Positions 2,387 to 5,320 of a DNA stretch of 7,833 nucleotides are shown one piece after another. The notes under the pieces were generated by a model. That model did no database searches. It was not told where the DNA came from and was given only the letters and a program-made list of their open reading frames with translations. Source of the DNA: a virus (taxonomy: Duplodnaviria > Heunggongvirae > Uroviricota > Caudoviricetes); IMG/VR virus record IMGVR_UViG_638341082_000003, positions 1 through 7,833 of that record; one strand, written 5' to 3'. The first letter of the stretch is position 1. Every line of letters begins with the position of its first letter. Both the position numbers and the translations under genes were made by a program.

Positions 2387-5124
<2,738 letters not shown>

Positions 5125-5320
5125 GCTGGTTGTGTGGGATGGCACCACCGACGGTGCAGCCGTTGGCATTCTGGCGGTTGCTGCTGACCAGACCAGCACC
5201 ACACTGACGTTCTACAAGTCCGGCTCGTTCCGTTATGAGGATGTGCTCTGGCCGGAGGCTGCCAGCGACGAGACTAAAAAACGGACCGCGTTTGCCGGAA
5301 CGGCAATCAGCATCGTTTAA
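5125..5320 (+). pseudogene. D: Head decoration protein gene D, 3' fragment (about the last 65 of 110 codons), with no start codon of its own
   Basis: Frame +2 reads [65 protein letters not shown], stopping at TAA 5318-5320. This matches the C-terminus of lambda gpD from memory. Upstream in this frame is out-of-frame B sequence. Confidence 0.85.

Follow-up and report, generated by a model that had tools for sequence, protein, structure and literature searches.

The question raised by this locus is how the portal gene B of a lambda-type head cluster came to run directly into the interior of the decoration gene D. The stretch of DNA analysed, here called the window, is 7,833 nt long, and a previous reading of it made from the letters alone (the sequence-only reading) had proposed a recent, microhomology-mediated deletion at about 5100-5140. 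In this study, we place the joint to the base, compare it with intact and damaged relatives, and report that it is very probably a decay scar, left by a single 2.4-kb illegitimate recombination in a lambda-type prophage beside potB, in the lineage of Escherichia coli 101-1.

The window corresponds, with a 100% match, to the first 7,833 nt of contig AAMK02000005.1 of assembly GCA_000168095.1 (E. coli 101-1), and the strain name Escherichia coli 101-1 is carried by the deposited proteins EDX40031.1 and EDX40053.1. The contig starts inside a phage endolysin gene and continues with a diverged cos-like site, Nu1 (181 aa), A (641 aa), W (68 aa) and the truncated genes B', D' and E', followed by the 3' end of a gene of the tail-fibre region, a 369-aa gene, a tail-fibre assembly gene and a methyltransferase gene. 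Past the prophage, the same contig carries the chromosomal genes potB-potA-pepT-roxA-phoQ. Phage genes in lambda order are thus set in a bacterial chromosome, as in a defective lambdoid prophage, and what has been lost is essential for the particle: B lacks its 3' 60%, D its 5' part and E its 3' two-thirds, C/Nu3 is gone altogether, and the loss extends from FI across most of the tail region. From this gene content, the window element is the late-gene end of a lambdoid prophage remnant adjoining potB.

The genes preceding B' are of full length and lie on the + strand. The Nu1-type small terminase gene (1841..2386) is an ORF matching Pfam Phage_Nu1, with 100% identity to the potB prophage of AST85 (NZ_AP043644.1) and 92% identity to lambda over 404 nt. 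The A-type large terminase gene (2361..4286), which contains GpA_ATPase and GpA_nuclease, shows nucleotide identities of 98.9% to lambda A and 100% to AST85. The W-type head-tail adaptor gene (4283..4489; gpW) is 100% identical to the alleles of the IAI39 prophage and of phage Perceval, with a nucleotide identity of 97.1% to lambda. The lambda head cluster Nu1-A-W-B-C/Nu3-D-E (NC_001416) has the same gene order, overlaps and reading frames; the window differs from it in the absence of lambda 3468-5876, in its D-E allele, and in its diverged Nu1 and cos region. The cos-like region was observed at about 1645-1700 (diverged sequence ~1653-1700) and reads ACGGGGCGGAAGGCGCGCGGGTTTTCGCTATTTATGAAAATTTTCCGG; it agrees with lambda from position 13 on, whereas its cohesive-end 12-mer differs from lambda's GGGCGGCGACCT, and this canonical cosN 12-mer was not found in the window.

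The window was compared by BLAST with five intact references, these being lambda, phage Perceval and the prophages of TW10828, E300010 and IAI39. Against all five, two collinear blocks were obtained, one (window 1-5120) running to B and the other (from 5116, 5117 or 5119 to 5836) to D-E, and the two abut at 5116-5120. Nothing is inserted at the joint and both flanks are collinear with one intact reference, as in a short-homology junction. The DNA missing between the blocks amounts to 2,409 bp against references with a lambda-type C and to 2,421 bp against the closest intact alleles, IAI39 and Perceval, in which C is longer by 12 nt; the earlier figure of roughly 2.6 kb was too high. On the lambda map the deleted segment is 3468-5876, which takes in the end of B (codons 213-533), C/Nu3 in full and the start of D (codons 1-43). 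The sequence-only reading was therefore right that the C-terminal 60% of the portal, C, Nu3 and the 5' part of D are missing, and wrong that only the 3' third of D is kept, since codons 44-110, or 61% of the gene, survive.

The crossover was placed by base-by-base comparison with lambda, Perceval, TW10828, E300010, IAI39, AST85 and seven further intact loci. Genuine B alleles all read GG(G/C)TATCCTGGCTGG at the site, in nine aligned intact references as well as in all lambda-type matches (22 of 22) from the GTDB species representatives. Where D is a perfect match to the window, the allele has CAC TAC CCG TAA GCT GG, and the window has GGG TAC CCG TAA GCT GG. C5118 can derive from D alone, and G5115 only from a B of the GGG type (lambda, TW10828, CFSAN061771). 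Since all genuine B alleles have TATCCT, B-derived DNA ends by A5117 and D-derived DNA begins at T5116 at the earliest, so that the crossover is the dinucleotide TA at 5116..5117, common to B (GGG TA/T CCT) and D (CAC TA/C CCG). Base-exact, the joint consists of GACGGGTA followed immediately by CCCGTAAGCTGG, and the 31-mer across it is AGCGAGGACGGGTACCCGTAAGCTGGTTGTG. The alignment with lambda B and D confirms that the B-like and D-like segments are what they were taken to be. The shared CCG in which the joint had been thought to sit does not exist, because B has CCT; the bases in common are TA, or TAYCC at four of five positions.

A B allele reading TAC CCG, which would give a 6-bp microhomology, was not encountered in a scan of IMG/VR. 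Four TAC matches among the GTDB representatives proved to be chance, coming from Acidobacteriota and Aminicenantes MAGs with no similarity to the window. The lambda-type B 26-mer was also seen on contigs, many of them short, of Chromatium, Kitasatospora, Paenibacillus, Oceanobacillus, Shewanella and Bradyrhizobium, among unrelated taxa, most likely as lambda DNA contamination of the assemblies.

The truncated portal gene B' (4486..5124, + strand) comprises 212 codons and a stop codon, TAA at 5122-5124, with B-derived DNA extending to 5115-5117; it was deposited as EDX40031.1, 'phage portal protein, lambda family [Escherichia coli 101-1]'. Its product is identical to residues 1-212 of lambda B at 208 of 212 positions (98%), and its nucleotide identity to lambda is 97.8-99.7%. 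Pfam Phage_portal_2 (PF05136) is matched with E = 4.8e-44, only over profile positions 2-171 of 354. The gene also stands where a portal gene is expected, directly after W, whose stop (W 4283-4489) is overlapped by the start at 4486, and downstream of Nu1-A. B' is thus a homologue of the lambda-family portal (gpB) of 212 aa, against about 533 aa for a full-length portal and 533 aa in the solved lambda portal chains. The joint is out of frame, as had been claimed, and ORF 4486-5124 ends where the sequence-only reading placed the end of the portal.

Within this ORF, D supplies everything from the last base of codon 211 through codon 212 to the stop codon. Relative to the B frame the D frame is shifted by +1, and the stop codon of B' is D's CGT AAG read in another frame. 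Codons 211-212 (TAC CCG), largely D sequence out of its own frame, nevertheless encode Tyr-Pro, the product of B's TAT CCT, which is a coincidence. Protein homology therefore seems to reach residue 212, whereas DNA homology stops in codon 211. This is a caution for annotation, as the last two 'portal' codons, except for the first two bases of codon 211, come from another gene and mimic portal sequence.

The head-decoration remnant D' (5117..5320, + strand, +1 frame relative to B') consists of codons 44-110 and the stop codon, with no native start codon. It agrees with residues 44-110 of IAI39 D at 67 of 67 positions and with lambda D at 65 of 69, and it matches Pfam HDPD (PF02924) with E = 6e-14 over profile positions 43-113 of 116, as a homologue of gpD. 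These matches, together with those of B' and the collinear blocks, bear out a B-D deletion joint in the interval originally proposed. A complete 110-codon D with its own start is not encoded, codons 1-43 being absent and the D frame upstream of 5117 being out-of-frame B sequence. An 82-codon ORF is predicted across the joint (5072..5320, + strand), in which 15 out-of-frame B codons precede D codons 44-110; its 82-aa translation served as a joint-specific look-up key.

Over 721 nt, D'-E' has 0 differences (100% identity) from the D-E allele of intact prophages, e.g. that of IAI39. Relative to lambda, D' is 97% and E' 88-91% identical, so the right-flank allele differs from lambda's. The statement that the genes flanking the joint are almost identical to lambda thus stands for the left flank, with A and B' at the identities given above, but not for the right. 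A G+C-rich hairpin followed by a T run was observed in the D-E intergenic region (5336-5362; AAAGGCCGCCTGTGCGGCTTTTTTTAT), 100% conserved in the IAI39 and Perceval alleles, and looks like a possible intrinsic terminator or RNA-stability element.

With the joint defined, the mechanism can be considered. In a simulation of random B x D junctions on an intact reference, 16% showed an overlap of at least 2 bp (P = 0.16), and the TA overlap alone is therefore no demonstration of a microhomology-dependent mechanism. The imperfect 4/5 match TAYCC (5116-5120) surrounds the TA. At the joint, a search of the window for repeats and inverted repeats gave only weak inverted repeats; direct repeats, filler DNA and remnants of an IS were all absent. 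Illegitimate, RecA-independent short-homology deletions are a known class in E. coli and phage lambda DNA. The joint resembles this class in its clean junction without filler, its short shared bases, and its direct-orientation sites 2.4 kb apart, and differs from it in that the B/D overlap, 2 bp if perfect and 4/5 if imperfect, is at chance level.

In the intact references, the segment that is deleted here contains an 8-bp direct repeat, GCTGGATG, with one copy 5 nt in from its left edge and the other 6 nt in from its right edge. A one-step TA junction bypasses this repeat, which is a hint of a more complex route, in which a deletion between the two copies would have been followed by a loss of ~19 nt between TA repeats, from an intermediate reading GGGTATCCTGGCTGGATGGCACTACCCG. 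A post hoc estimate puts the probability of such a placement by chance at about 0.01, and that of a shared 8-mer anywhere within +-30 nt at p = 0.05. As the route also requires two events where one suffices, we consider it very unlikely.

For the single-step deletion, the following course is proposed. A lambda-type prophage next to potB would have lost 2.4 kb between B and D in one illegitimate event, probably of the homology-independent, RecA-independent type, by slipped replication or by end-joining at minimal homology, with the ends joined at the common TA inside the imperfect TAYCC. The B frame now enters D's ACC CGT AAG as TAC CCG TAA and stops after 212 residues, and the D remnant is left without a start codon of its own. 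Portal, scaffold/protease and decoration protein are all lost, and, with a second deletion described below, no particles would be expected from the element. The earlier conclusion that the prophage could not build its own procapsid is likewise favoured by the loss of these parts of the portal, C/Nu3 and D genes.

The second lesion, overlooked by the sequence-only reading, cuts E at codon 153. The truncated major capsid gene E' (5376..5840, + strand) contains 153 E codons followed by Ile and a stop (154-codon ORF), and is 100% identical to IAI39 E up to 5836. The joint carries a 6-bp microhomology, GGATAT (5831..5836), common to E and to the native upstream context of the downstream gene (hereafter the E'/X joint). 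By comparison with AST85, the sequence at 5837..6148 (+ strand) represents the 3' 104 codons of a 349-aa gene, which in AST85 is flanked by a tail-fibre N-terminal-domain gene on one side and by the 369-aa gene and the tail-fibre assembly gene on the other. Lying 700 nt downstream of the B/D joint, this second joint marks the loss of the remainder of E and of the genes from FI across most of the tail region. A microhomology of at least 6 bp has a chance probability of P = 0.0017, so that short-homology deletion has acted on the element. The E'/X joint fits that class much better than the B/D joint does, and its significant microhomology in the immediate neighbourhood counts in favour of an illegitimate deletion at the B/D joint. 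The B/D deletion is accordingly one of at least two inactivating deletions in the element.

At the same locus, E300010 carries a less decayed relative, in which the genes from Nu1 onward are retained as far as V, the tail-tube gene. V is truncated at codon 128 (13975-13990 of the E300010 stretch compared) and continues in frame into the downstream gene also found in the window. The right endpoint of this V'/X joint, ...TAT/CTGATGCTCTCGCC, falls within 3 nt of that of the E'/X joint of the window (5831-5837), the left partners being V and E, respectively. Among the 5,426 complete E. coli genomes, the V'/X joint was present in E300010 only, and the native arrangement was present in 57. The shared right endpoint may be due to a deletion hot spot, a nested deletion or coincidence.

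The alternative that the joint unites two lambdoid elements, whether two prophages or a prophage and an infecting phage, with Nu1-A-W-B' contributed by one and D'-E' by the other, was considered against the relatives of each flank. The nearest relatives of the flanks do differ. For B' the best matches are lambda-like phages, e.g. 2H10 (99.8%), in which D-E is only about 91% identical to the window, while the D'-E' allele is of the IAI39 type and occurs at 99% or more in 225 E. coli records. Across W-B', prophages with a perfect D-E allele depart from the window at 7-14 positions; a set of seven loci whose D-E allele is perfect or nearly so shows 8-14 scattered differences, in several combinations of SNP blocks. 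No intact parent with both flanks at 99% or more was found in the 5,426 complete genomes, the best prophages reaching 97.7% over 1841-5836. Segment by segment, however, the alleles are 97-100% alike across W-B', and a patchwork of SNP blocks is seen there in every prophage compared; it is the usual lambdoid mosaic resulting from homologous exchange, which explains the discordance. The genes have exactly the order and orientation of a single lambda-type genome, and as much DNA is missing as normally separates B from D. Intact prophages that combine GGGTATCCT in B with a D-E allele 100% identical to that of the window also exist (CFSAN061771, M160133, LD67-1, 300033 and TCM3e1), which makes a single parental prophage plausible. 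A joint between two elements is therefore unlikely in our assessment, and a deletion inside one unsampled mosaic parent is the simplest reading.

The AST85 prophage bears on both the parentage and the age of the deletion. It differs from the window by 3 mismatches over window positions 1-4328 and by 7 over contig positions 5831-9984, i.e. 10 in about 8 kb, and it is without the B/D joint despite these near-identical flanks. There are 0 mismatches from 734 to 4328, and 19 from 4329 to 5115 (2.4%). The change at this point, which could be cited in favour of two elements, is sharp and coincides with the end of A (A/W boundary, 4290-4329), where it marks a recombination boundary. The AST85 prophage has the same integration neighbourhood and the same tail-fibre-assembly and methyltransferase end as the window element. 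In addition to the 19 positions in W-B', it differs in that its own B is cut after 834 nt and followed by an insert with integrase, HTH, BRO-N and Icd-like genes and then by J, in that D and E are lacking, and in that it keeps tail genes absent from the window, including the native gene whose 3' end is window 5837-6148. Near-identity combined with different damage indicates that the two remnants had a much more complete prophage as their recent common ancestor and were damaged independently of each other.

The chromosomal flank from potB to phoQ (contig 9985-15124) was observed to differ by 1.8% between 101-1 and AST85, against prophage ends that are ~99.9% identical. The prophage would thus be much younger than the divergence of the host backbones, having presumably been acquired separately at the same site or transferred.

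The surviving genes of the window are undamaged, Nu1, A and W being of full length and B', D' and E' being free of internal stops and frameshifts. Together with the absence of differences over the 721 nt of D-E and the near-identity to AST85, this supports a recent deletion. Of the earlier description of the event as recent and microhomology-mediated, the first part is consequently supported, whereas the second is not demonstrated by a TA overlap at chance level. We infer the recency of the deletion, its single-step origin and its molecular route.

A 241-nt query across the joint was used against the 5,426 complete E. coli genomes, and at no place was it covered to 80% or more; the joint is absent from this set. 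Exact-pattern scans for the joint in GTDB species representatives, JGI metagenomes and IMG/VR returned zero matches. The 82-aa ORF across the joint was found on two near-identical Logan assemblies, from read sets SRR9418184 and SRR28411845. The SRR9418184 assembly equals the window over 2,597 nt, and the same contig is present in 5 samples; that of SRR28411845 has the same junction and 4 SNPs elsewhere, all in A. Both also hold the downstream E' joint. The joint thus recurs, on the question of recurrence in other genomes that the sequence-only reading had left to comparison, in these two assemblies alone, a pattern that fits vertical inheritance within one narrow lineage.

These assemblies also bear on whether the joint could be a mis-assembly or chimera in the 2008-era draft of 101-1, as its absence from all complete E. 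coli genomes and the position of the window at the start of a draft contig might suggest. Since the same junction, with the E' joint, was recovered from independent read sets, it is no assembly artefact; that explanation is effectively refuted and its probability is negligible.

An exact-protein look-up of the 212-aa B' returned five contigs, two of which, ENA metagenome contigs, were rejected because they carry an intact B, reading TATCCT, that is cut by the contig end at codon 212. Such look-ups can return contig-end pieces of intact genes that mimic a truncated protein. A literature search yielded general papers on cryptic prophages and none on the B/D junction.

DLP12, Qin and Rac are cryptic lambdoid prophages of E. 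coli K-12. Like these, and like the IAI39 prophage at the Qin locus (cspI-ynfN-gnsB-ydfO-nohA, followed by A-W-B-C-D-E), which supplies the D-E allele identical to D'-E', the window element has lost essential morphogenesis genes by internal deletions and kept a Nu1/noh-type terminase. It differs from the K-12 cryptic and IAI39 prophages in lying by potB and not at the Qin locus, and in its lesions, which join B codon 211 to D codon 44 and E codon 153 to the tail-fibre-region gene. The joint is a pseudogenising deletion in a cryptic lambdoid prophage, an instance of ordinary prophage decay of the same kind as in DLP12, Qin and Rac. The two joints of the window and the differently damaged prophages of AST85 and E300010 illustrate how quickly near-identical lambdoid prophages at one locus are taken apart by independent deletions.

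It may be asked whether B' and the intact cos-Nu1-A-W were instead kept because they benefit the host, either by poisoning the portal or procapsid of superinfecting lambdoid phages or by helper-dependent packaging. Nu1, A and W are indeed intact, B' remains open over its 212 codons and starts in the native translational context, across the stop of W, and portal fragments of about 166-226 aa are found in many other E. coli. No sign of selection was seen, however; the joint is limited to a handful of near-identical sequences, so that recency alone predicts intact ORFs. Most of the other portal fragments are labelled 'partial', and B' spans half of the portal domain. Retention for host benefit is accordingly extremely unlikely. 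As a putative activity, cos-Nu1-A-W-B'(1-212), expressed from the late operon, could act as a dominant-negative defence by titrating or co-assembling with incoming portal or scaffold, or could allow helper-dependent packaging of the adjacent chromosome, which we regard as highly doubtful. The dominant-negative route would have B' expressed upon infection by a related phage or induction of a co-resident prophage. A new function for B' or D' is unsupported, a dominant-negative fragment or a packaging module being conceivable.

With ordinary decay as the preferred reading, the potB-adjacent prophage of E. coli 101-1 is expected to be defective for head assembly, and the junction between GACGGGTA and CCCGTAAGCTGG is usable as a lineage marker for the prophage remnant. 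Beyond such bookkeeping the significance of the joint is small.

Portal proteins of 166-226 aa were observed to be numerous in E. coli (protein cluster 2), most of them labelled 'partial' and cut by contig ends. A 226-aa form without the 'partial' label was present on 17 contigs of up to 442 kb, and truncation of the portal gene at different sites in lambdoid prophages may recur.
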